A stretch of DNA of 64,000 nt, from NCBI GenBank assembly GCA_010015585.1, contig ML975153.1. One strand, 5' to 3'. The stretch comes from Eremomyces bilateralis CBS 781.70. Taxonomy: Eukaryota. The notes beneath the pieces were generated by a model. It was not told where the DNA came from and made no database searches. It saw nothing but the letters and a program-made list of their open reading frames with translations. Position numbers and translations under genes: made by a program. This document shows positions 11,378 through 37,835 of this stretch, piece after piece. Every line of letters begins with the position of its first letter. Positions within the stretch are counted from its first letter, which is position 1.

Positions 11378-13585
11378 ATGGGGCTAGAAGATTTTGAGAA
11401 AGAGCTTGCCGAATCGCAAGCGAAGACTGAACGGCGAGATCGAGATCGCAGCCGCAGTCGAGATCGTCACGGCGAGAAATTAAAGGTACGGTCATTTCCG
11501 AGACCTCACAAACTATTGAAGATATATGTTATACGCGTTGGAATAATGAAACTGAGATCTATCTAGGAGGAAAAGAGAAAGCACAGTCGCCACCGCCATA
11601 AAGACCGCGAACGACACCGCCATCGATCACGCGGGCGCGACGATGACCGACGAGACCGAAATCGCGAGAAAAGGTCACGGCATGACAAAGATGACGAGGG
11701 ACGAGAGCCGAAACGGGATTCCAAACGTCGTCGAAAAGAGTCCAAGTCCCCATCCATTTCCTCGAACGATGCACCCCGGGAGCGCGATCCCGCCGTCCCT
11801 AGCGACAGGATTCTCGACAACGCGGTCGAGGAGTATCGCGATTCCGGAGTTAAGCGCGATGCATGGATGGAGGCACCGTCAGCGTTGGATGTAGACTACG
11901 TGAACCGGGCGAAGCCGCCAGCGGAGGAACCCCGGCGTGGGCACTCACTGCACGACGAATACAATCTCAAGATGCACAAGAACGAGCTGAATCGACATCT
12001 TGCCGATGTGAAAGGCAGCGAGGATGAAGGTGCCGTGGAGGACGAGTCAGCGCAACATGAGGTAGCCTACGAGTTCGGGGATGATGGTTCCGGATGGCGG
12101 ATGACGAAGCTGAGGGCCGTTTATCGCCAAGCGAAGGAGACGGGGAAGGCGGTTGAAGAGGTGGCGCTGGAGCGGTTTGGTGGGCTCCGGGAGTTTGACG
12201 ATGCTCGCGAGGAGGAGGTGGAATTGGACCGCCGCAAGATGTACGGGAAAGACTACGTTGGGAAGATCAAACCTAGCGGAGAGCTCTTCGAGGAGAGGAA
12301 GTTAAACATGGGCATCCACCGGCCAAGCTCCAGCCACAGTCGCCGTTCGAGCGAACTTCAAGAGGTTGAGGGGCTTCCTCAAGGGGAAATTATCCAGGAC
12401 AGCGGCCCGGTGCTAAGTCCGACCGAACTGAACAAGCTAAAAGCGCAGCTCATGAAGGCCAAGCTACGAGGCGGTCCTGAGGCCGCAAAGCTCGAGAAAG
12501 AGTACAACCGAGCATTCGAGGTATCCCAGCGCGAGCGTCCAAGTACAATCGTCATCGGCGGACGCGAATCTCGCCAACTGGCCGGAAGCCGCACCGAAGA
12601 AGTCAACGCCATCGACAGCAAACGCGGCCGGGAACGGGGCTTAGTCGAAGAGAACGAAGACATGTCAATCGAAGACATGGTCAAGGCCGAGCGACGCAGC
12701 AAAGGCGTCGGCTCGAGCAAGGACATGGCGGAGCGGATCGCGAAAGACGGCAAGTTCGACAACGACCTAGACTATATGGACGACAACGCGGCGAAGCTGG
12801 CGAAGCGGGTGGTGAAGAGCAACATGAACCTCAAGAACACCGCCGTGCACGAGCTGCAGAAGATGAGCCGCATCCTGGACGCCTGCCCGCTATGCCATCG
12901 CGAGGACACCCACACACCGCCCACCGCGCCCGTCGTGTCCCTCGCGACCCGCACCTTCCTCACGCTGCCCACCGAGCCCGAGATCGGCGACGGCGGCGCG
13001 GTCATCGTCCCCCTCGAGCATCGCCTCAACCTGATCGAGTGCGACGACGACGAGTGGGAGGAGATCCGCAATTTCATGAAGGCACTGACTCGAATGTACC
13101 ACGGCCAAGGGCGCGCGGTGCTGTTCTACGAGAACGCGGCGCACCGCGCGCGGAAGCGGCACGCGAGCCTGACCGCGGTGCCGATCCCATACGAGTTCGG
13201 GGAGACGGCGCCGGCGTTCTTCAAGGAGACGATGCTGGCGAGCGACGAGGAATGGGCGCAGCATCAGAAGGTGATCGATACGGGGAAGATGGCGGCCGAA
13301 GGGGCGGGGCGGTCGGCGTTTCGGCGGGCGATTGCGAAGGAGATGCCGTATTTCCATGTATGGTTCACGTTGGATGGGGGCCTGGGACATGTGGTGGAGG
13401 ATGAGAACCGGTGGCCGAAGGGGGATTTATTCGCGAGAGAGGTGATCGGTGGCATGCTAGACCTTGGTCCGGAGGTGATCAGGAGGCAAGGAAGGTGGGG
13501 GAAAGGGGATGGGAGGAGGGTGGAAGGGTTTAGGAAGAAGTGGAGGGAGTTTGACTGGACGAGGGTTTTGATTGAAGGGCAGTGA
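11378..13585 (+). CDS. CWF19: Spliceosome-associated Cwf19 / CWF19L2 (CwfJ C-terminal domains), intron ~11487-11566
   Basis: RS/RD-rich N-terminus, GDDGSGWRMTKL, CPLC, WEEIRNFMKAL, DEEWAQH and PYFHVWFTLDGGLGHVVED. Confidence 0.9.
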
Positions 13586-14118: not shown

Positions 14119-17100
14119 TCACAATCGCAACGCGTTCAATATCTCCTGCGCCAGATTCTTATACTGCATGATGTTCCCGTCCACCTTCTTGAACTGAATC
14201 CCGTAGAGCTGAAACAACGGCACCTTCACAACGAAGATCTCAAACCGCAGCGCCATCGCCCCCCGCCCCACGTCGTTCTGCACATGCGTCGTCGTCTCCC
14301 CCGCCGCCCGCTCACGCGGCTCCCGCCGCTTCCCTCCCCGTTCCCGCTCGCGCGCCGCCGCCCCCTCGGAGCCGTCTGAGTCGTCCGACCCCGTGAACGA
14401 TCGGTCGGTCACGTCACGCCGGGAGCCCGGGTTGCGGGGTGAGCGCTGCGGCTCGGCCGGGCGTTGGGTGTCGCGGAACTCGTCGCGGTCGCGATCGCGG
14501 TCGTTGCCGCGGAGGCCGCCGAAGCTGATTTTCCGGCGGTGGCCGGAGGGAGTGGGGGCGGCCAGGGAGGGGCTGCCTTCTTGTGAAGGGAGGGGGTCGA
14601 TGCTGGGCAAGTGCGTGCAGTTGAATCCGCCCTTGATTTCATTGTAGACGACGCCTTTTTGCTTCAGCACGCGGATGATGTCCGAGCGGATGACGGGGAG
14701 GGGTTTGCTGCTGGTCGTGCTTGCGCTAAACAGCCCTTTCAGGTAGACGGGCTTGAGGCTCTCGCCCGTCTGGCCGGAACGCGCGTCGGCCTCCGCCTCA
14801 ATCTCCGCGTCGGTCTCCTCGCGGAGATTATCTTCACGTGCCTGTTCCCGCTGAGCACGCCTGGCCTGAATGCTCTCGCGTCGTGCGTGGCCTAGTGATT
14901 TGGTTCGCGAAGTGGTTGCGGTGCGGGGACGTGCTGCGGGCTGCTGGTCGTCCGAGGCGGCATCTCCGGCTTTGAGACGGTTGTCAAGGCTGGACCGGTC
15001 CGACCCGCTAGTGGCAGGAGGTTCGGTGGTGTTGTCGTCAGAAGCTCCATGACGCCCTATCCGCCGTCTAATCTCTGCGGAGTTAACACTAGTCGACCGT
15101 CCAAGGCCTTTCAATCTTCGAGAGAAATCACCGCCAGCACTAGCAGGTGAAAGGAATTCGGGTTGCTGGTGCTGGGTCGTTCCTTGGAACGACGTGGCTG
15201 ATGCCGGAGCATCTAGCTTTCGATTCCTCCGGACACTGAAACTCTTCCTAGGAGTGCTCGGCTGCTCCGTGCTCGGCGGCTCACCAGGACTCGGGGCCAC
15301 CGACACAGACGGAGGGGGATTGGTGACTTTCTCCTTCTCGAGATCTTTTTCCCTGTCCCTGTCCCGATCTCGATGTCGTCGAGTGCTCAGCCGCCGCAAG
15401 ATCGCACCGGCCGTGCTCTCCTTCCGAGTAGGTTCGATAGGAGGTGTGACCAACGCGGGGGATACTGGTACATTCGCTGCACCGAGGTTCATGTTCTTCA
15501 CGCCCTCTTGAACTTCATCTTCTCCCTGGGTTCTAGCTCTTGGCCTTGATCGACCGCCAGTCGGCTTTTCTCCTTTCAGTTCATAGGTAGCTTGATTCGT
15601 GTACGCAGCTTCGGGTGCTTGAAGTTGTGGCATATCAAACGGCCCCTCACCTTCGGTCTTCGGCAAACCGAACGCGCCGGGATTCTTCTCCGTGCGCTCG
15701 CGGTCTTGCTTCTCGCGAACCAGGTAATAAATGGAAATGAGCGGGCTAAACGCATTGACTGGGTCGGCTCCCAGTTGGACTTCTTCTTTCGAGGGGTTGG
15801 TAAGGGTGTCACGACTAAGCGAATTGCGACGCTTGTAGAAATCAAACACCCCACGCTTACGTTCTGTCTCGGGAGTCTGCACCGGCTGTTTCCGGCTCAT
15901 GTTTCGAATGGCTGCCTGGTATTCCTCGGATTCGATAACTTTCGTGAGTTGGTTGGTGATAAATTCGGGTGGTCCAAAGTCGAAGCCAACCATCCCATCG
16001 ATCACCTCGGCATCCAAGGGTAGGCTCAGAGGCTCACGGTGAGGCAGGAAGTTATCGGGAGCGGAGTTGAAGCCTTTCGTCATCCAAGGATGGTTGATGA
16101 TCTCGGTTAACGTCGCGCGTTGTCGGGGGTCGGTGACGAGCATCCTGGAAATCAGATGCTTGCACTCTGGACGCTGAATGTCAGACATACGGGCCGTGTA
16201 AGTCGTGGGACCCAAACTTACCGGTCGATAACCATGGTGGATAATCGACGTATCCTTTTTTGATCTTGGCATGCAGCTGCGGCATGCTTTGGTCATCGAA
16301 CGGTACCTTCCCGCAAACGAGGACGTAAAGAACAATTCCAAAACTCCAGATGTCCACCTCGGGGCCGGTATACTGTCGGGCTTGAAGCAGCTCCGGTGCT
16401 GCGAAGTACAAGCTGCCACAGAATGTTTTCAGGTAATTTTGTGGCGCGAAGAGGTTCGACAATCCAAAATCAATGATCTTGATATCGCCCGTCTTGCTGA
16501 TCAGGATATTCTCGATCTTGAGGTCTCGGTGGACGATGCTATTTCGGTGACAATAGTCCAGAGCACTCGCAATCTGCCTTGCGAACTTCCGGGCCGGTTT
16601 CTCCTTCAACCGTCCATGAGAGATGATGTAATCTAGCATCTGTCCGCCATTGACATATTCGAAGAGCATATACCAATGGTAGTTGGTCCGAACAAAGTCT
16701 CGCATCCCACAGATATACGGGTGGCTGACCAGGCTGACGATCGCTGCCTCTCGTGCGGTTCGGACTTCTTTAGAGTGGTCTGCTCTTTCCTTTTCTTGGG
16801 GAGTTCGGTGATCATCGGTCGAGTGACGTGGAACTATCTTAACCGCAACCTATATACAATTAGAGGTGTGCCATATATCGATCCGATATAGGTATATACC
16901 TGTTCTCCCGTCTCCAGATGCTTCGCCAACTTGACCTTGCCCATACTCCCGGCGCCAATGGTCTTCCCGAGTGCCCATTGGCCGCTCGGGGTACCGATGG
17001 TGGTCCTCCGCCGTGTTCCACCAGTTTTATGCGAAGATCCAGGGTTATCCATGGCGATACCGTTGGTCGGCGGTTGTTGGGTATGGGATGGGACGTCGGA

Positions 17101-29980: not shown

Positions 29981-32497
29981 TCAGGCACCTGGCTTCTTCC
30001 CCCTTGTCCTCTGAATCTTCTCCAGCTCCTCATCAATCTTCTTAAAACTCCAGGAATCCCAAAACGAAGGGTAGAGGAACGGCCGCAGATCAAACCGATT
30101 GTCGTCTGGGGAATAGTCATTGCAGTGCAGTGCTGGCGTGAGCGTCGTCATCTTATGCCGATTGATGGCATAGTAATGGAAGAAACGCTTCACCTTCTCC
30201 GCCACCTGCTCCGGCTCGTACCGACCGCCCCATTCGTGGACCAGGCGCTGAAACATCCCGAAGGGACCGAGTTTGTGGACCTTTCGCAGGCGACCGAATT
30301 CGGTCAATTCACCGTACGTCATGCCCATGTCCGCCTCGTCTGACTGCACGTAGTTCTCTGTGATCGGCTCCAGTTCGGCGGTGGGTGTGGCTGTTAAGAA
30401 ATCATGCAGGACAGGAATGCCGAAGCTCGTCTCCGCCCATGCCATGAAGCGCTTGAGGTCACTCTTATCGATGCCACCGATCGGATTGATATCAGCGGAC
30501 GAGCAGTCGTACTTTGTGAGATACCCACGGAGCGACTCTCCAACGTTCGCACTCCCTAGGACGAGGAGACTACCCCCTCCAGGACGGTTCCGAGTGGTCG
30601 GGAGGATCTGAGCGAATTCGTATGCCGTTACCATCCGCGATCGGGCCTGGATATTTTGTAACATAATGTTCTCGGCGGATGATCCGCCCTCGACCTTGAA
30701 TTTCGGTTCGAAGTTGAGGGCGTTTACCACCAGGTTTCTTTGCGCTTCGTAGACTTGGTCGATGTCAAGATCGACGTGGTATGAGCCAATGGCATCGGAT
30801 AGATCCTTGGCTCTCTGTCTCGTCTCCCTATATAAGAAGTTAGCAAAAGTGAAAAGATGGGGACACCGGCTCGACATACTCCGAACTTTGCTTAGACATG
30901 CCCATATATACAGTGTGGAAGAGCTGATTGCACAGCTCTTGCGGTGTCTCAGGCAGTTTGTCGGAATATCTTGCAACTCGCTTGACGTCCGCAATAACTT
31001 GCTCTTCCCCAGCCCTGATCGCATCCATGACAAGACTACACATGCCATAGACCATCGTTGATGTAGAGGCTGAATCAATCCCGCCTACCTTAATTTAGTG
31101 AAATACTCCGAACCACTTAAGGGGCATTGCGTACCTGATAGAGGACAAAGGTATCCCGCCGCACCACATCTCCTCAAATAATCCCACAGATAGCACCCGC
31201 CGACATATGCAATCTCTTCTTCAGGAGCGTGAAACCTTGGTTCAATCGCCGGACTTGGTCCAAGGCTGACATCCAGATCCGCCTGCTCAGAACTGAGCTC
31301 GAAGGGCGTCTCGATTCTATGATACTTCCTAGTCGACGTCGCTGCCTGCATGGCACGGGAGATGGTTGCCCGATTTGCGCGGACATCCTCAAGCTCAACG
31401 GTAGCGGTGATGACTTCTACATCTTTAAGGGAGAATTGCGACGCCTGCGCAACAACGTCGCCGTTGATGAAGATCATGGCACATCCATCGTAATACAGAC
31501 GGTCTCCATCGCATCCTCTTTGGTTGGCGTACAGGTAGACTCCGCCGCTCTTCCTCGTGGCTTCTTGGATAAGCTGAAGTCTCTGGTTCAGCTTGCGGAG
31601 TGTGAAATGGGAGCCACTGCTGTTAGTGATGATCTCTACGCCATCCAAGCACATGGGAATGTGAGGAGCATCTGGAGTGAAGAGCTCCTCACAGGTCTCT
31701 GCACCGAAGCAGGTATCCTGGTAGGTCGGTGTCAGCAAGATGACTCCGTCTGCGCCTTCGAACTGAACATAGTCTTACTGGCGTTGAGATTACAGCGTCG
31801 CCGAAGAGGACATGAGTCTCTCCTTGTAGCTTCTGGATTCGCCGCGGCAAGTAATATTGCTCATACTCTTGGGGCCTGAGCCAAGGGGTAAAGTGCCGCA
31901 TCTCCCGATACTGAACAACCTAATTAATCTTTTTGGTCGTCAAACTCCCTGAATCAAGACCTACGTTTCCATCTGCATAGCAATCATTAGCAGGTATTTT
32001 CTGCTTCCATTCCAACACCTCTTCACATACCGTTTGCAAGGACCATCTTTGGCCGAATGAAGAGGATCTTTCCATTCAGACAGATGATTCGACAGTTATA
32101 CCGAACGTTCCGGTGCTGGACTGGCATGCCAATGTCGAGCAGGATATCGAAGCAAGACTTGTCCTGGAGGATACACTCCATCTGCTCCCAGCAATGCAGA
32201 TAGAGGTCCTGTTCCAACAGGTGGTCGAGGCAGCCATATCTGAAGGACATCAGTGGACGAATCTCCAGGCATGGAATCATTCAGCAAGTTGCCATACCCG
32301 CAGACCTCCAGCTCAGGTCCAACACGTAGCCTTGCATTCCTGCTTTTGGCCTCTTGAATACTCTGGATGATTCTTTGCCGATTCCCTTCAAAGTCAAGAG
32401 CCTATTTCTGATATGAGTGTGGTTGTAACGTGAAAGAAAGTGGCTTACACACCCATTGATTCAGATTGCAAGTCGCTACTGTCACAAGGTGGCCCAT
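29981..32497 (-). CDS. QNS1: Glutamine-dependent NAD+ synthetase, many introns
   Basis: [77 protein letters not shown] and [12 protein letters not shown]. Confidence 0.96.
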
Positions 32498-32805
32498 GAC
32501 GCTGAATGGTATGCTTCTTCAACAGGAATTTTATTTCTTTGTCAGTAGTGGTTTATGAAAAGGGTTGGAATCTTCATGATGAGCTCATGTAATCAGTTAT
32601 ATGAAATTAATAAGGGTGGTGTGTGACAAACGGAAGGGATGTACCCAGTTTGCACAGCTCGTATTCCACCCGAATCGGCCCGGACACACCGAATGGGTAG
32701 CAGGTATGGGGGTGTATATATAGCACTTCCCGCAAAACAATAGCAATTGCTCCCTCCCCTCCAAACCAGTCGCTCTAGTGAACTGGTAAATTGAATTATC
32801 GAGTA

Positions 32806-32978
32806 CAGTCAACCACCGCTATAACGATTACCGCTACAGCGATATTCGCGTTATAGCGATAAGATTCCCTGCACGGTTTCTCAATCAATGCTGCCAAGAA
32901 AATTCATTTTAGCGATATCCGCGATATAACGATTGGATTCGCCTGTACGGATTCAATCGTTATAGCGAAGGTTGACTG
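32806..32978. mobile_element. 173-bp MITE, Tc1/mariner-pogo superfamily type
   Basis: TA|CAGTCAACCACCGCTATAACGATT ... AATCGTTATAGCGAAGGTTGACTG|TA: 24-bp terminal inverted repeats matching 22/24, flanking TA dinucleotides at 32804-5 and 32979-80, no ORF. Confidence 0.88.
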
Positions 32979-34675
32979 TATTCCATACGGAGAAACCGTT
33001 TCAAAAATTAGATACATTCTAAGTTAACCTGTTCTGATTTCCAAGCTTATCTAAGTGCCGAAGTACCAGTAGGTGTGTCAATGTCATAGAGTCGGTCTTA
33101 GTGCCGAATCCTAGGCAGGGTGAATGGGCAAGTGCCCAACTATGGGCTGGCTCACATCACCGTGTCGGAACAAGCACCGAACGAGTCACAATTCTGTACG
33201 ATGGTCGTTGTAGCAACCGCGGAGCGCAACTTACAAGGCGCCACCAGTAAATGAACGATCTCGTACCTAGAAATCAATCGCCTTTCCCATGTTACTAGGC
33301 CGCCGCTGCCGGTACGGCAAGCGCCACCCTCACGAACAATGCCAACATTTTCAAACACCAAGAGTGTTATCCTCATGTCGGATTGACCATCCAAGGCCAG
33401 AATCATGCTCTCAAATTTGGTCTCCAAAATTTTTCATGATAAATTAGTGAATTTTACATTCCCCGTTAGCGGTGCAGGCTCGCTCTGCAAGTCCCTGGTC
33501 GGTTAACGCTGTCGAAATATTTACTTGGGAATTATAAGCGACGGAGCACTATCTAGACGCTTGTTCTGACTGAGGGTTGCATGCCCAGCTCCACCACTAT
33601 GCCTAGGCTTTGACTGCGACAACACCCGCAGGGCCCAGAGCACATCAACTTTGATTAGAAGAGCAATCAGTATAGGCACTATCCTTTCAACTATCGTCAG
33701 GTGCCTTGACAATAGTAACGGGTGCAGAATGCGAGCCCCCTTCCTGTAGAAGTTTTGACGTTGTTGATCCCAGCTGTATGCAGTTCCTGACCGTTCTTGG
33801 CATGCCCTGTGGGTGAGAAATTGCAATCGAGAGTACTTGCGAACAAAATGGCCATCGCGGAGGAACAAACCCTTTGGAACATGGGAAGTTTTGCAAGCTG
33901 AAATGATCGCCGTTTAAGACTCACACTGACTGTAAGGACAATATTGACCTAGCAAGGATGCTTTTTGTGATTTAATGGATATGGAGACGCTTCTACATAC
34001 GCGGACTCTCTCTCTCCATCTATAATTTATGACGGCACGAGGGTTCCACATCTTCTGTGAACATTGGTGCACGAAGGAAGGACATGCCAGGAGCAACAAC
34101 TCCAGCGGTTGCCCTCGAATCCCATGTCTGGTGGGACCTAATCTGGGTATTCTGGGCGGTGCCCATGTACTACTGGTTTCAAGTGTCATGAATTCATGAT
34201 GGAATTGTCGACTAATAGCACAATATGCTTAATATATACGTATACCGCAAGATCTAATCTGAGGATCGTTCAAAACTGGCGAAGTGAGATTACAACTTAC
34301 AAATAATAAACGGTCAGGAGTCAGAACTTGGTTTGTTTCCACCGGTTTTGAACAGCTTTCAGATCGTGCGGTATGAGATCAACCCAGACAGACTTTTACG
34401 GACGTGGAAGGTATTTTTCACTGGTAGAATGATATATCTTTGGACGAAAAGTAGGAGAATTGATCTATCATTGCGTAGAAAACTTAGGCTGCCTTGGCAA
34501 ACTGAACCAAATCGGGTTGACAAAAAAAGGTTGAAGATTAGAAAATGAAAAGTATTCGAGAGATTTTCTTCCATAAGTGATGATATAAGTCCTCAATTAA
34601 GTACATTTCATAATTCATTCAGGACAGTAAACCCCGCCATACCCCTCATGAGATCCATATACCCTGAAAAACGAT

Positions 34676-34691
34676 AAAAAAAAATAAAAAA
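34676..34691 (-). terminator. RNA polymerase III oligo-dT terminator of the tRNA gene
   Basis: TTTTTTATTTTTTTTT on the minus strand begins 5 nt after the discriminator base. Confidence 0.8.
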
Positions 34692-34696
34692 TTCAA

Positions 34697-34832
34697 TGCC
34701 TCAATTCGGAGTTGAACCGAAGACCTTTGCATTTCTAGAGATACTAGTCTGTGATGTTTATTAGTGTCCATTTTATTCGTCTGCAGCTTGGGAGGAACAT
34801 ACGCAACGCTCTACCAACTGAGCTATTGAGGC
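34697..34832 (-). tRNA. tRNA-Thr(AGT) gene with a canonical 9-nt 37/38 intron (34733-34741) and a 54-nt spliceosomal-type insertion (34749-34802)
   Basis: Acceptor stem GCCTCAA/TTGAGGC + A73, D arm GCTC-AGTTGGTA-GAGC, T arm TTCGG-TTCAACT-CCGAA. After removing both insertions the anticodon arm is TTGCA-CTAGTAA-TGCAA. Confidence 0.88.
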
Positions 34833-36259
34833 AGTTGTCGGAACGATTTCCGCCAATGACTCCAGGTTCCCATTTCGATAGGTTTTTGCGTGAGTGGGGG
34901 TTTAACGAGAGCATGGCTTTCAGTTAATGACCCACCCACCCCATGAGACCTGTGTCGTCCAGGTGTTTGCTAAATCAATCATGAACTGCCTGGGGCATAT
35001 TCCTCGGGCTTTGGAGTGTTTAAACTCCAGGAGTCGCCCCGCTCCGAAGATGGACCCCGAGCGATTTTCAGGAGAGAAATACGGAAAACCCTAAAGCCCT
35101 AATGGCCTTCTCGGGAAAAATTACGGAAACGCGGGTGTCTGCAGATGCCCCTATGTCTAAGTTAGGCCAATGCTAATGATGTATTCAACGAACGAATTCC
35201 GTATCACGGTGGTGGTATTCCGCCGGATTTGGATAGGCCATGCTTCGGGGAGCAGCTGCAATTGCGTCAGCGACCAGTAGTACCAGACAGGATTGTGATA
35301 TCAGCGTTCGATCCCCCTGTTGCAGCAACATGCACCTTTGAATTGGCACACTCCGGTCTCAGTAACGGGAGGCAGTTTGGTCCAGACCATCCTCAGGGTC
35401 GTCGTTGACTTCGACGATGAAGTACAGAGTAGTCCGTGGCCGAAAGCTGCGAAATCCGCCATTTCTTTCACATTCTACCCTTCTAGCTTGCTAGATGTGA
35501 TCAAGGTCTCAATGGCTTATTATCCAAAGATATTTTGCAGGCGCTTCTAGCCTCAGTCCTCAGAGCATGTTACAGGCTTACAGCTCTCTGATCCATCGGT
35601 GGTGTTTTGACGTGACTGTACTTGAAATGACTCGAAAAAACACCGTTGACAATAAGACAGCAAGTGACTTTGCAAAACCCGGTGGCATCACATAAGTTCG
35701 TCACCAGCAAGGTTGGCGGTTAAGGGACTTCGGGCAGTGGATTCAAGATAAATGCAGCTGAGTAGGTCATATTTGATATTATGTAGTTAAAAACATTGTG
35801 AAGGCTACGGGAGCTAACGCTTCGATAACTGAATCAATAATACGCTAGCTGATACATATCGATTATCAAACCCCCTGAAACTAAGCAAGCATCTGGTGGT
35901 GATGTGTTGAAATCACTAGCTTGAAAGCAACTTCACAAAGCGAACGTGACGGCAATCTGTGTACTGCTGATTTATGCGACAGAAATCAGAAATGCAGAAT
36001 AGAATATCCTAACGATCAGATGGTGCCCCCCAAAAGCTTGAGTGGCTGGTGTGCTGGTCTTGTCCAGTTCGAGTTTCTAGAAGTCCTTGATGGTGCGTTT
36101 AACGATCAGTAGAGAAGACCAAATTTGATTGGTGCAGGTACCAAAGTCTCCAACAGCACTCGGAGAATTTACTACAATGAATTTGCCCCGACACTTCTTC
36201 TTCTAGATGACATATTTCTAGTCGATGGAAAAACTGAGAAGCAATAATACAGAGTCACC

Positions 36260-37835
36260 ATGGAATATCTAATAAGGTCGGCTCAACAGCACGAAGACTT
36301 TCGTGAAGCAGAGATCAAGGCTCTTGCAACTCTTCATGGTTTCGACGTGGAGATTCTCTCCTATAGCAACGAGGTATGTGTTTGAAGTCTTTATGCCCCT
36401 CTATAAATGGTTTTTACCTGTCTAGTCGATTCGTTGATGCGGGTGAAAGTCCTTGAATGAATGAGACGCCGAATGTCCTTCCTAAACAAATATTTACAAG
36501 TCTCAAACAGTCACCCTACTGCGTCGTCCGCCTCCCATCAGACGATGCAGCGAAGCTCCTCATTGAAAGAAGCATCCTAGCATGTGCTATATACCGTCTC
36601 TGGGGCCAAGGCAGCGACTACGATAGTCTACACGAAGATCTCCGTTCCAGGACCGAGTCAGAATGGTCCAAGTACAAAGTCAGCTCCTTCTGGTTCCAAA
36701 TCAAAACCTTCCAATCCAAACGGTCGGCAACAGCCCGACAGGATATCGTGGAGTCATTCAGTTACTTGCCCTTTGATGGCCCAATAACGCCCCAGAACCC
36801 GGATGTGGAATTTTGCGTTTGCGAATACTTCGACAAGGGCACCTTGACTCCAAAACAGATATACATGGGCCGACTGATTGGCAACAGCTGTCGCGATGTC
36901 ATCAATGTATATGACCTCAAAAAGCGAAGTTATATCAGTACGACATCTATGGACGCAGAACTAGCCCTCGTCACGGCCAATCTTGCATTGGCTGGTCCAA
37001 ATAAGTTGATGTATGACCCCTTCGTCGGCACAGCCGGGTTCCCCATCGCCTGCGCACACTTTGGATGCATCGTCCTTGGTAGCGATATAGACGGTCGCTG
37101 CATCCGTGGCAAGGGTGAGAAGGATGTTCTATCCAACTTCCGACAGTATGGGATAGCCGGGCGGTGGTTGGATGGGTTCACAGCGGACCTAACCAACACT
37201 CCCTTACGAAAACGAAGATTCCTGGACGCAATCGTATGCGATCCGCCCTATGGTGTCCGCGAGGGTCTAAAAGTCCTGGGCTCGAAACGGGGGCCGGTAG
37301 AGGAGGTATATATCGACGGAAAGTCTGCTTACAAGTACGTATATCAGGGATACAGGGACCAGTCAAGGCTAACATGAATGAAGACAGGCGGATTACGTGC
37401 CACCGAAGAAGCAGTACAGCTTTACTGCGATGTTGAGAGACATTCTCCAGTTCGGAGCCGACACTCTCGTGGACAATGGGCGCGTAGTGCTCTGGATGCC
37501 CACTGCCAACGATGCGGACGTCGAGCTGCCGTTCCCCCAGAACCCATATCTCGAGCTCGTTAGCGTCAGTGTACAAGAATTCAACAAATGTAAGTCGAGT
37601 ACATAGAGATCTGTAATCCTTTATCTGACCTTCATAGGGTCCCGAAGATTATTAGTCTATCGCCGGTTGCCGAGCGTGGAGGTTGACGCCGCAGCCATTT
37701 CTGCTTACAACCATCAAGCTGGCCACACGGCAGATGAACTCAATGACTTTCGCCGCAAGGTATGCGCTGCATAGTTATTTATGGTTGCTCTATTATGCTA
37801 ATTGTAACTAGTACTTCCAGGGTTTCAAGTCTTGA
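36260..37835 (+). CDS. TRM11: tRNA m2G10 methyltransferase catalytic subunit Trm11
   Basis: MEYLIR..QQHEDFREAE, YDLKKRSYISTTSMDAELALVTAN, YDPFVGTAG, GSDIDGR and DAIVCDPPYGVREG. Confidence 0.93.

Follow-up and report, generated by a model that had tools for sequence, protein, structure and literature searches.

The 54-nt insert in the anticodon stem of a nuclear tRNA-Thr(AGU) gene is probably a genuine U2-type GT-AG spliceosomal intron with exact borders, and the gene is otherwise intact. It lies on the minus strand of a 64-kb window (the whole stretch of DNA that was analysed) and carries a second, 9-nt insert at the canonical position of tRNA introns. Our assessment of the 54-nt insert covers its intron nature and its exact borders, not a functional tRNA product. 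The layout of the gene is given in Table 1.

Table 1. Features of the tRNA-Thr(AGT) gene and its surroundings, in window coordinates
Feature	Position	Strand	Evidence
Whole tRNA-Thr(AGT) gene, 136 nt with both inserts	34697-34832	-	Rfam RF00005, direct reading
Exon 1, tRNA positions 1-30 (acceptor 5' strand, D arm, anticodon-stem TTGC, 4 nt)	34803-34832	-	Rfam alignment, ARAGORN drawing
A box TAGCTCAGTTGG, tRNA positions 8-19	34814-34825	-	Direct reading
54-nt GT-AG insert, separating tRNA positions 30 and 31	34749-34802	-	Splice signals, X3 joint
Predicted branch adenosine, 4th letter of CTAAT	34761	-	Direct count
Exon 2, tRNA positions 31-37, ACTAGTA (A31, C32, U33, anticodon AGT, A37)	34742-34748	-	Direct reading, fold, ARAGORN
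9-nt tRNA intron TCTCTAGAA of the canonical type, at 37/38	34733-34741	-	Fold of 82-nt form
Exon 3, positions 38-73 (anticodon-stem 3' strand TGCAA, variable loop, T arm, acceptor 3' strand, discriminator A)	34697-34732	-	Direct reading, Rfam alignment, ARAGORN drawing
B box GGTTCAACTCC	34708-34718	-	Direct reading
Oligo-T tracts 3' of the gene, Pol III terminator-like: T6 34686-34691, T9 34676-34684, T5 34667-34671	34667-34691	-	Direct reading

The gene was the sole match in the 64-kb window to reach the gathering score of the Rfam tRNA model, which is 29 (RF00005, 51.4 bits, E 4.1e-08, model positions 1-71 of 71). In the Rfam alignment its anticodon arm holds 72 unaligned letters against 9 in the model, that is, 63 extra bases. 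When both inserts were removed in silico, the remaining 73 nt formed a cloverleaf with a fold energy of -24.2 kcal/mol, which ARAGORN called tRNA-Thr(AGT). This body has U33, a short variable loop of 5 nt, internal A and B boxes and a downstream T tract, and in the drawing made by ARAGORN with introns allowed it pairs without mismatch throughout the acceptor (7 bp), D (4 bp) and T (5 bp) stems. The letters that the first-pass annotation had given for the minus strand of this interval proved identical one by one, and these results bear out its description of a tRNA of the Thr(AGT) type that is interrupted twice, with intact stems, A and B boxes and oligo-T tracts, and with a TTGCA/TGCAA stem that is restored by exact removal of the GT-AG insert.

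The A box was read directly against its consensus. Box A is described as beginning at +8 (PMC4937561). The distance from the end of the A box to the start of the B box is 95 nt, slightly beyond the 31-93 nt given for natural yeast genes in the same paper (PMC4937561), and this counts against the main reading. Folded freely, the 136-nt precursor reached -34.3 kcal/mol (z -1.82), which 8 of 200 shuffles matched, a result of little information. The gene is located between those for NAD synthase and Trm11, in about 4 kb (32400-36260) that contain no protein-like ORF.

The canonical site of eukaryotic tRNA introns is N37/N38 (PMC10275265). We found that the 9-nt insert resembles such introns in its position, in pairing between anticodon and intron and in a bulged 3' cut. 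In the fold of the 82-nt form, from which only the 54-nt insert has been removed, CTAG at positions 32-35 pairs with CTAG in the intron, C32 pairs with a G three bases before the 3' end of the intron, and the 3' cut falls inside a 3-nt bulge (AAA). This fold agrees with the earlier claim of a 37/38 site with an antepenultimate G that pairs with C32. Among the two inserts, all three of these canonical SEN/TSEN features are found in the 9-nt insert only; the 54-nt insert, at 30/31, breaks the position rule. Judged by this fold, the 82-nt form is predicted to be a canonical substrate of tRNA endonuclease. A paralogue from run X4 has its own intron, of 15 nt, at the same 37/38 site.

The 54-nt insert begins with GTATGT, ends with CAG and contains the branch motif CTAAT with 12 nt following the branch A. 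It thus has the sequence features of a U2-type intron, namely a 5' splice site of the GTRNGT class, CTRAY with YAG, and a fitting length. Twenty short introns that join ORFs in the window served for comparison; their median length is 52 nt (range 40-74), and the distance from the branch A to the 3' end varies from 3 to 23 nt. GTATGT starts 5 of these 20 and CAG closes 11. CTAAT is the rarest local branch variant, present in 1 of 20 compared with 10 of 20 for CTAAC, which counts against the main reading. One local intron (37335-37387, 53 nt, in the Trm11 gene) was confirmed by tblastn of five homologues. A scan for ORF-joining introns without signal filters returned 8,598 candidates and was too noisy. 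The splice signals that had been claimed for the insert from the sequence, with a branch motif 12 nt from its end, were found on direct reading, and its claimed match to local mRNA introns in length and signals held against the 20 introns compared.

These signals are rarely met by chance. In random 54-mers drawn from first-order Markov copies of the window, a loose signal set at fixed ends occurred in 37 of 5,115,680 (7e-6), and the set that includes GTATGT in 2 of 5,115,680 (4e-7). The insert has no second copy in the 64-kb window, and its likeness to the 20 local introns (best score 6) lies inside the background of those introns among themselves (mean -2.0, sd 5.5, max 10). We rejected the idea that the absence of a T-run in the insert reflects selection for Pol III passage; a T4 run is present in just 1 of the 20 local introns, making its absence uninformative.

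The borders of the 54-nt insert were also scanned for a BHB motif, defined as two 3-nt bulges with cut sites, a 4-bp helix between them and flanking helices. No such motif was found in 16 registers of our home-made scan geometry or in constrained folds. The best registers had either 4 of 4 central pairs with 0 outer pairs, or 3 of 4 central and 3 outer pairs with 0 inner pairs. The heterotetrameric tRNA endonuclease, the fungal type, is described as limited to introns at 37/38 (PMC10485636), and the insert departs from the N37/N38 rule in lying at 30/31.

Further evidence came from a contig of a public run, X3, that lacks the 54 nt. In this contig (contig 3, 300 nt), 34476-34748 is joined straight to 34803-34827, so that exactly 54 bases are skipped. 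The skipped segment ends CT..AC on the plus strand, which is GT..AG on the gene strand; no letters are shared at the joint and none are inserted, and the 9-nt intron is kept. The joint is either a precise excision or an intron-less allele. It comes from one contig in one run of one study, and the type of the run is a guess (RNA, possibly DNA). The contig is putatively RNA; if X3 is DNA, the joint marks an intron-less allele and not splicing. The first-pass annotation had predicted an intermediate from which the GT-AG intron is gone and in which the 9-nt intron is retained: the X3 contig has precisely this junction, and its standing as an RNA intermediate depends on the guessed run type. No X3 record covers 34465-34475, 34828-34956 or the 54 nt itself, and run X5 gave no match to the locus; neither is evidence, and the contig depths (2.7, 4.6 and 9.58) are not comparable. 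Among the matches listed, no Logan-sourced protein had near 100% identity to the Trm11 exon.

We consider it quite unlikely that X3 is DNA of another isolate without the 54 nt, in which case the joint would record a presence/absence polymorphism (a recent gain or a precise loss) and give no evidence at the RNA level. The guessed run type speaks for it, as do two further points. X3 comes from a different sample and study than X1, a second run, and X3 differs from the window in a homopolymer: T9 at 34676-34684 is read as T11 in X3, that is, with two extra A in the plus-strand A9 run. Homopolymer length is the commonest type of difference between strains. Against it, the three X3 records contain no other letter differences from the window, so that the other isolate would have to be near-identical. 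Furthermore, a deletion that runs exactly from GT to AG with no shared letters has the look of precise loss or gain of a spliceosomal intron. Because of these exact GT/AG borders, even an intron-less allele would speak for the insert being an intron.

The run X1 record crosses this whole region as one 14,805-nt piece. Contigs of this kind are built from 31-letter words, and such an unbroken piece argues that 31-letter words of the tRNA gene recur at no second locus of that genome. This bears on the possibility that the resemblance is due to chance or to assembly, with an unrelated 54-nt insertion and an X3 joint that is a chimera formed by way of an intron-less paralogue of the tRNA gene. In favour of this, the joint has only 25 letters on its shorter side, all conserved tRNA sequence, fewer than the 31 that the rule applied here asks for before a bridge is counted. 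We nevertheless regard this explanation as very improbable, given the frequencies of the signals in random 54-mers, a joint that falls exactly on the predicted borders and the suggestion from X1 that a second locus with shared words does not exist.

The paralogue in run X4 (DNA of organism B) was compared through the tRNA ends only, which are what the run covers. The matched parts of the body are the same, namely the 5' 27 nt, with one other letter, and the 3' end. The paralogue has the anticodon AGT and its 15-nt intron, and it has no 54-nt insert. In the anticodon stem, T28-A42 in our gene corresponds to C28-G42 in the paralogue, a change on both sides that keeps the pairing, and T27-A43 corresponds to T27-G43, a change on one side, as read from the letters. 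Among metagenome contigs, a search for a related gene with the insert at 30/31 (the exon end plus GT, 36-66 nt, and AG plus ACTAGTA) gave no matches. The uninterrupted 20-mer was present at two loci in these contigs, neither of them a relative of this gene. One (L001), on an AT-rich contig, is a tRNA-Thr(AGT) that shares the anticodon arm and has a different body; the other (L002) is unconvincing as a tRNA.

The paralogue and the X3 joint also bear on how the gene is parsed by software. Default ARAGORN reported no tRNA at 34697-34832, and ARAGORN with introns allowed gave tRNA-Ser(AGA) with one 63-nt intron. This parse would place a single non-canonical intron at positions 32/33, to be cut by tRNA endonuclease, and at its borders the BHB scan gave a 6-bp outer helix with 3 of 4 central pairs. 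We find it scarcely credible, since serine tRNAs have a long variable arm where this body has a 5-nt loop, since the X3 joint drops 54 nt and not 63, since the reading of the X4 paralogue as AGT is unambiguous, and since the fungal-type endonuclease, as noted, is limited to 37/38 introns (PMC10485636). The long arm is an identity element of serine tRNAs (PMC8450103). The AGA reading arises solely because CTAG is present twice, 9 nt apart.

If the 54-nt insert is a spliceosomal intron, the gene could be matured in the following way. The signals by which the spliceosome would recognize the transcript of the locus are GTATGT, the branch motif CTAAT and CAG. Exact excision would link C30 to A31 and complete the TTGCA/TGCAA stem. 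The result would be a standard intron-containing pre-tRNA with a C32-G pair and a 3' cut in a 3-nt bulge, and the tRNA splicing endonuclease and ligase would then complete maturation. In this order the nuclear spliceosome would act ahead of the endonuclease, which in budding and fission yeast is located on the cytoplasmic face of mitochondria. We put the chance that a mature, chargeable tRNA is made from the locus at nearly even, tilting slightly against. Our fuller reading is tentative and has somewhat less than an even chance: a working nuclear tRNA-Thr(AGU) gene that would need the spliceosome and then the endonuclease and ligase in series, and that would be the first with a spliceosomal intron and possibly the only gene in its genome for this body.

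The insert may instead be a real spliced intron only within a Pol II transcript, either non-coding or UTR, running across the gene. A recent gain would then have disabled the tRNA gene, or the route would yield no tRNA, leaving a very young, undecayed pseudogene. We judge this somewhat unlikely. The X3 contig, in which the 9-nt intron is still present, reads on across T6 and T9 to 221 nt past the tRNA 3' end, as would fit a long Pol II RNA; the roughly 4 kb around the gene could host a non-coding transcript, and the search of metagenome contigs turned up no relative that has the insert. An ordinary pre-tRNA made by Pol III would end before this 221-nt extension, and a contig need not equal a single transcript. 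The extension fits a Pol II transcript, Pol III read-through, or a pair of overlapping transcripts that the assembly joined. In principle, tRNAs can be released from longer transcripts by RNase P and RNase Z. Nor need a long RNA mean Pol II, as read-through of Pol III terminators in yeast gives long 3'-extended pre-tRNAs (PMC4937561). In addition, the gene retains each of its four stems intact, along with both boxes, A and B, and the terminator tracts, and the anticodon-stem pair that is changed on both sides relative to the X4 paralogue still pairs; both points argue against a disabled gene.

The closest known parallel is the sole U6 gene of S. pombe, which is transcribed by Pol III and whose intron the spliceosome takes out (Tani and Ohshima 1989, in the account of PMC5855946). 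Both are small structured ncRNA genes with a GT-AG intron that has mRNA-type signals, both have internal or A/B-block Pol III promoter elements, and in both the spliceosome would have to act before the RNA folds. They differ in that U6 occupies the spliceosome's active site, which explains why it was hit, whereas a tRNA does not, and in that the tRNA-Thr gene has a second, endonuclease-type intron 7 nt away. Introns in snRNA genes have been proposed to originate by reverse splicing followed by reverse transcription (PMC5855946). The list of ncRNAs with spliceosomal introns in the same review names U6, U2, U5, U1 and rRNA, and no tRNA (PMC5855946). In our search of the literature, which lay largely outside subscription journals, no nuclear tRNA gene was reported to contain a spliceosomal intron.

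Bhattacharya and colleagues reportedly described spliceosomal introns in ascomycete rDNA in 2000 (cited in PMC5855946). These are alike in being spliceosomal introns in an ascomycete gene that is not transcribed by Pol II, but they lie in Pol I rRNA genes and have no accompanying tRNA-type intron. Non-canonical tRNA introns of the BHB type, in archaea and C. merolae, resemble the present case in that a gene may carry two or more introns, with one outside 37/38 and a need for ordered removal. Unlike the 54-nt insert, which lacks a BHB and has spliceosomal signals, they are defined by the BHB and cut by tRNA endonuclease. The best protein match suggests that the host belongs to the Dothideomycetes, the fungal class whose introner-like elements are known to give rise to new spliceosomal introns (PMC4457414). 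Such elements differ from the insert in having many near-identical copies, whereas the 54-mer is single in the 64-kb window and its similarity to local introns is at background.

The three types of nuclear intron are described as mutually unrelated (PMC12530127), and eukaryotic tRNA introns are described as lying at 37/38 and as being removed independently of the spliceosome (PMC10275265). If our reading is true, no tRNA gene was previously known to depend on the two splicing machineries together, and tRNAs would join the short list of ncRNAs with spliceosomal introns. Standard tRNA finders overlook or misname genes of this kind. The eukaryotic mode of tRNAscan-SE is described as handling canonical introns only (PMC10485636), and together with the ARAGORN results (none, or Ser(AGA)) this suggests that further such genes may be hidden in annotations. 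The gene would also be a clean case of intron gain in an abundant structured RNA, for example by reverse splicing. Moreover, either the spliceosome could splice Pol III transcripts other than U6, or a cytoplasmic tRNA could be matured from a Pol II transcript, and this locus would provide a natural test of these two alternatives.

We found that the Rfam tRNA model matched the gene over its whole length (model positions 1-71 of 71, 51.4 bits, gathering score 29), and that tRNA was the sole Rfam family at gathering score in the whole 64-kb window. In this alignment the anticodon arm had 72 unaligned letters, compared with 9 in the model. Default ARAGORN called no tRNA anywhere in the window. When introns were allowed, it drew perfect acceptor, D and T stems and a single 63-nt intron after position 32, giving anticodon AGA (Ser). 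The first-pass annotation, whose sequence of the gene agreed exactly with the window letters, had instead parsed the extra bases as two inserts, 54 nt between positions 30 and 31 and 9 nt at 37/38. That parse yields a perfect TTGCA/TGCAA stem with C32, U33, AGT and A37; with both inserts removed in silico, ARAGORN called Thr(AGT) and the product folded as a cloverleaf.

Coordinates of the tRNA gene, its elements and its neighbours (window positions)
Feature	Position	Strand	Basis or detail
tRNA-Thr(AGT) gene	34697-34832	minus	Rfam tRNA model
54-nt insert	34749-34802	minus	two-insert parse
9-nt insert	34733-34741	minus	two-insert parse
CTAG twice, 9 nt apart	34733-34748	minus	
A box	34814-34825	minus	direct reading of sequence
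B box	34708-34718	minus	direct reading of sequence
T6 tract	34686-34691	minus	direct reading
T9 tract	34676-34684	minus	direct reading
T5 tract	34667-34671	minus	direct reading
ORF-poor stretch	32400-36260		NAD synthase 5' end (minus) to Trm11 first exon (plus)
Trm11 gene	36260-37800	plus	PF01170; exons defined by tblastn
Trm11 intron	~36383-36486	plus	tblastn
Trm11 intron	37335-37387	plus	tblastn
Trm11 candidate intron	37590-37637	plus	
KA1-domain kinase gene, overlapping GT-AG candidates	16145-16221	minus	46 nt and 48 nt
CwfJ-family gene	11567-13585	plus	PF04676, PF04677

Next, four (X1, X3, X4 and X5) of five public sequencing runs, none on record as RNA, were compared with 34400-35100. In X4, DNA from a second organism, a paralogous gene with different flanks matches the tRNA body at its 5' end (27 nt, one other letter) and at its 3' end. 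It has a 15-nt intron at 37/38. Read directly, pair 28-42 is T-A in the window gene and C-G in the paralogue, changed on both sides, and pair 27-43 is T-A and T-G, changed on one side. Because the paralogue reads AGT unambiguously and has no 54-nt insert, and given the perfect stem, the Thr(AGT) call and the cloverleaf, we accepted the two-insert parse and the identity of the gene as tRNA-Thr(AGU). The AGA reading arises only because CTAG occurs twice, which allows two placements of the 9-nt intron, 37/38 (AGT) and 33/34 (AGA); automatic finders choose the wrong register. The serine tRNA with one 63-nt intron that ARAGORN drew would have a variable loop of 5 nt, without the long arm of serine tRNAs, and would require a non-canonical intron position, which makes it extremely improbable.

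The window was then scanned for the intron pattern GT[AG]NG[TC]...CT[AG]A[CT]...YAG. There were 58 matches, 37 of them no longer than 75 nt (16.3 expected, from 50 copies of the window generated by a first-order Markov model), and 20 of these 37 link two open frames, each 30 codons or longer. One of the 20, the second Trm11 intron, was confirmed by tblastn, as the alignments of five homologues break and resume there. Compared with these 20 introns, which were selected by signal pattern and are not an unbiased sample, the features of the 54-nt insert are all typical save its rarer branch motif: its length (local median 52 nt, range 40-74), 5' site GTATGT (GTATGT in 5, GTAAGT in 5), branch motif CTAAT (CTAAC 10, CTGAC 6, CTGAT 3, CTAAT 1), 12 nt after the branch A (3-23) and 3' site CAG (CAG 11, TAG 9). 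The earlier claim that it shares length and signals with mRNA introns of the window is thus borne out. No bulge-helix-bulge was found at its borders in 16 registers tried or in constrained folds, and, as described in PMC10485636, introns at 37/38 are the only ones that the fungal-type heterotetrameric endonuclease removes. Judged by its letters, the 54-nt insert resembles the mRNA introns of the fungus rather than a tRNA intron.

In X1, a DNA run that may be where the window comes from, one 14,805-nt record spans the compared stretch with zero differences. X3, from another sample and study under the same organism label, is of kind 'RNA?', which is a guess and may be DNA, and gave three records. 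The third (300 nt) runs from 34476 to 34748 and then straight to 34803-34827, skipping the 54 bases and matching the proposed intron borders to the base. The joint ends are CT..AC on the plus strand, or GT..AG on the gene strand, with no letters common to both sides and none in between. This record keeps the 9-nt intron and reaches 221 nt past the tRNA 3' end. It has T11 for the T9 tract (two extra A in the A9 run), the only difference in the three X3 records; it could stem from strain variation, slippage of a polymerase or a sequencing error.

We consider the joint, which was seen in a single contig from a single run (contigs are no proof that one molecule existed) and has a shorter side of 25 letters, below the 31-letter rule for counting a bridge, to be probably spliced RNA. 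That short side also gives some room for a chimeric contig or a chance resemblance. However, only 37 of 5,115,680 random 54-mers carried the loose signal set at fixed ends, and 2 the set including GTATGT. A paralogue as source of the joint would need at least 30 letters shared with the locus downstream of it, and, given how contigs are built, the unbroken X1 record speaks against any 31-letter word of the gene recurring elsewhere in that genome; chance or chimera is therefore very improbable. It is also unlikely that X3 is DNA of a near-identical isolate and the joint an intron-less allele. Under both readings, the insert acts as a separate unit whose borders are spliceosomal.

The fold of the 82-nt form, the gene minus the 54 nt, agreed with the first-pass proposal of a canonical 37/38 intron with a C32-G pair. 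The anticodon-loop CTAG pairs with the intron CTAG, C32 with the G that stands three bases ahead of the 3' cut, and a 3-nt bulge holds that cut, the same layout as the bulge-helix-loop described for eukaryotic pre-tRNAs (PMC10485636). The position follows the N37/N38 rule for eukaryotic tRNA introns in reviews (PMC10275265). By this model, the 9-nt insert counts as an ordinary tRNA intron. We propose that the spliceosome would first act on the transcript, in the nucleus, rebuilding the anticodon stem and giving a standard intron-containing pre-tRNA, and that endonuclease and ligase would then take out the 9-nt intron. We infer this order from the sole contig with the junction, in which the 9-nt intron is retained, and from the position of the endonuclease on the cytoplasmic side of mitochondria in budding and fission yeast, which may hold in this fungus too.

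The A and B boxes lie 95 nt apart, compared with 31-93 nt in yeast genes (PMC4937561), and from its sequence the internal promoter looks usable. The S. pombe U6 RNA is a Pol III transcript spliced by the spliceosome (PMC5855946). The third X3 record passes through the T6 and T9 tracts, which fits a Pol II transcript, Pol III read-through, as documented in yeast (PMC4937561), or two overlapping transcripts merged by assembly. The intron nature and exact borders in the first-pass interpretation have direct but thin support, and transcription by Pol III and a working tRNA are left as a proposal; the chance that the gene yields mature tRNA seems to us slightly short of even. Alternatively, the intron may function in a non-coding Pol II transcript that crosses the locus, with the tRNA gene a very young casualty. 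The gene sits in some 4 kb that lack any convincing ORF, bounded by the NAD synthase and Trm11 genes, and this location favours the latter reading, which we regard as possible but doubtful.

That stretch is large for a gene-dense window and may hold unannotated non-coding transcripts; the other X3 records on it extend from below 34400 to 34464 and from 34957 to beyond 35100. The closest upstream neighbour of the tRNA gene is Trm11 (tRNA guanine-10 N2-methyltransferase), probably by coincidence. The Trm11 exon best matched an NCBI protein named for the dothideomycete Eremomyces bilateralis CBS 781.70 (98% identity; next matches at most 60%). Elsewhere in the window, both overlapping candidates in the kinase gene join long open frames and may reflect alternative 5'/3' splice-site use, or one may be false. 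The CwfJ-family gene belongs to a splicing/debranching-factor family, with no link to the tRNA implied.

Metagenome contigs were scanned for the exact pattern of exon end, GT, 36-66 nt, AG and ACTAGTA, in that order, with zero matches. The uninterrupted junction 20-mer occurred at two metagenome loci, neither related to the gene. One, L001 (260-330, minus strand, AT-rich contig), is an uninterrupted tRNA-Thr(AGT) with an anticodon arm identical to the predicted spliced arm and another body. The window holds no second copy of the 54-mer, which is no closer to local introns than those introns are to one another. Introner-like elements have been described from Dothideomycetes (PMC4457414); by sequence comparison, such an origin for the insert is neither supported nor excluded.

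In a full-text literature search, which took in text of the main tRNA review, of the reviews on the endonuclease and on U6, and of the tRNAscan-SE 2.0 paper, we met no report of a nuclear tRNA gene carrying a spliceosomal intron. The non-coding RNAs with spliceosomal introns named in the U6 review are U6, U2, U5, U1 and rRNA (PMC5855946), whereas here the host is a tRNA gene, with the added twist of a second, endonuclease-type intron 7 nt away from the spliceosomal-type one.
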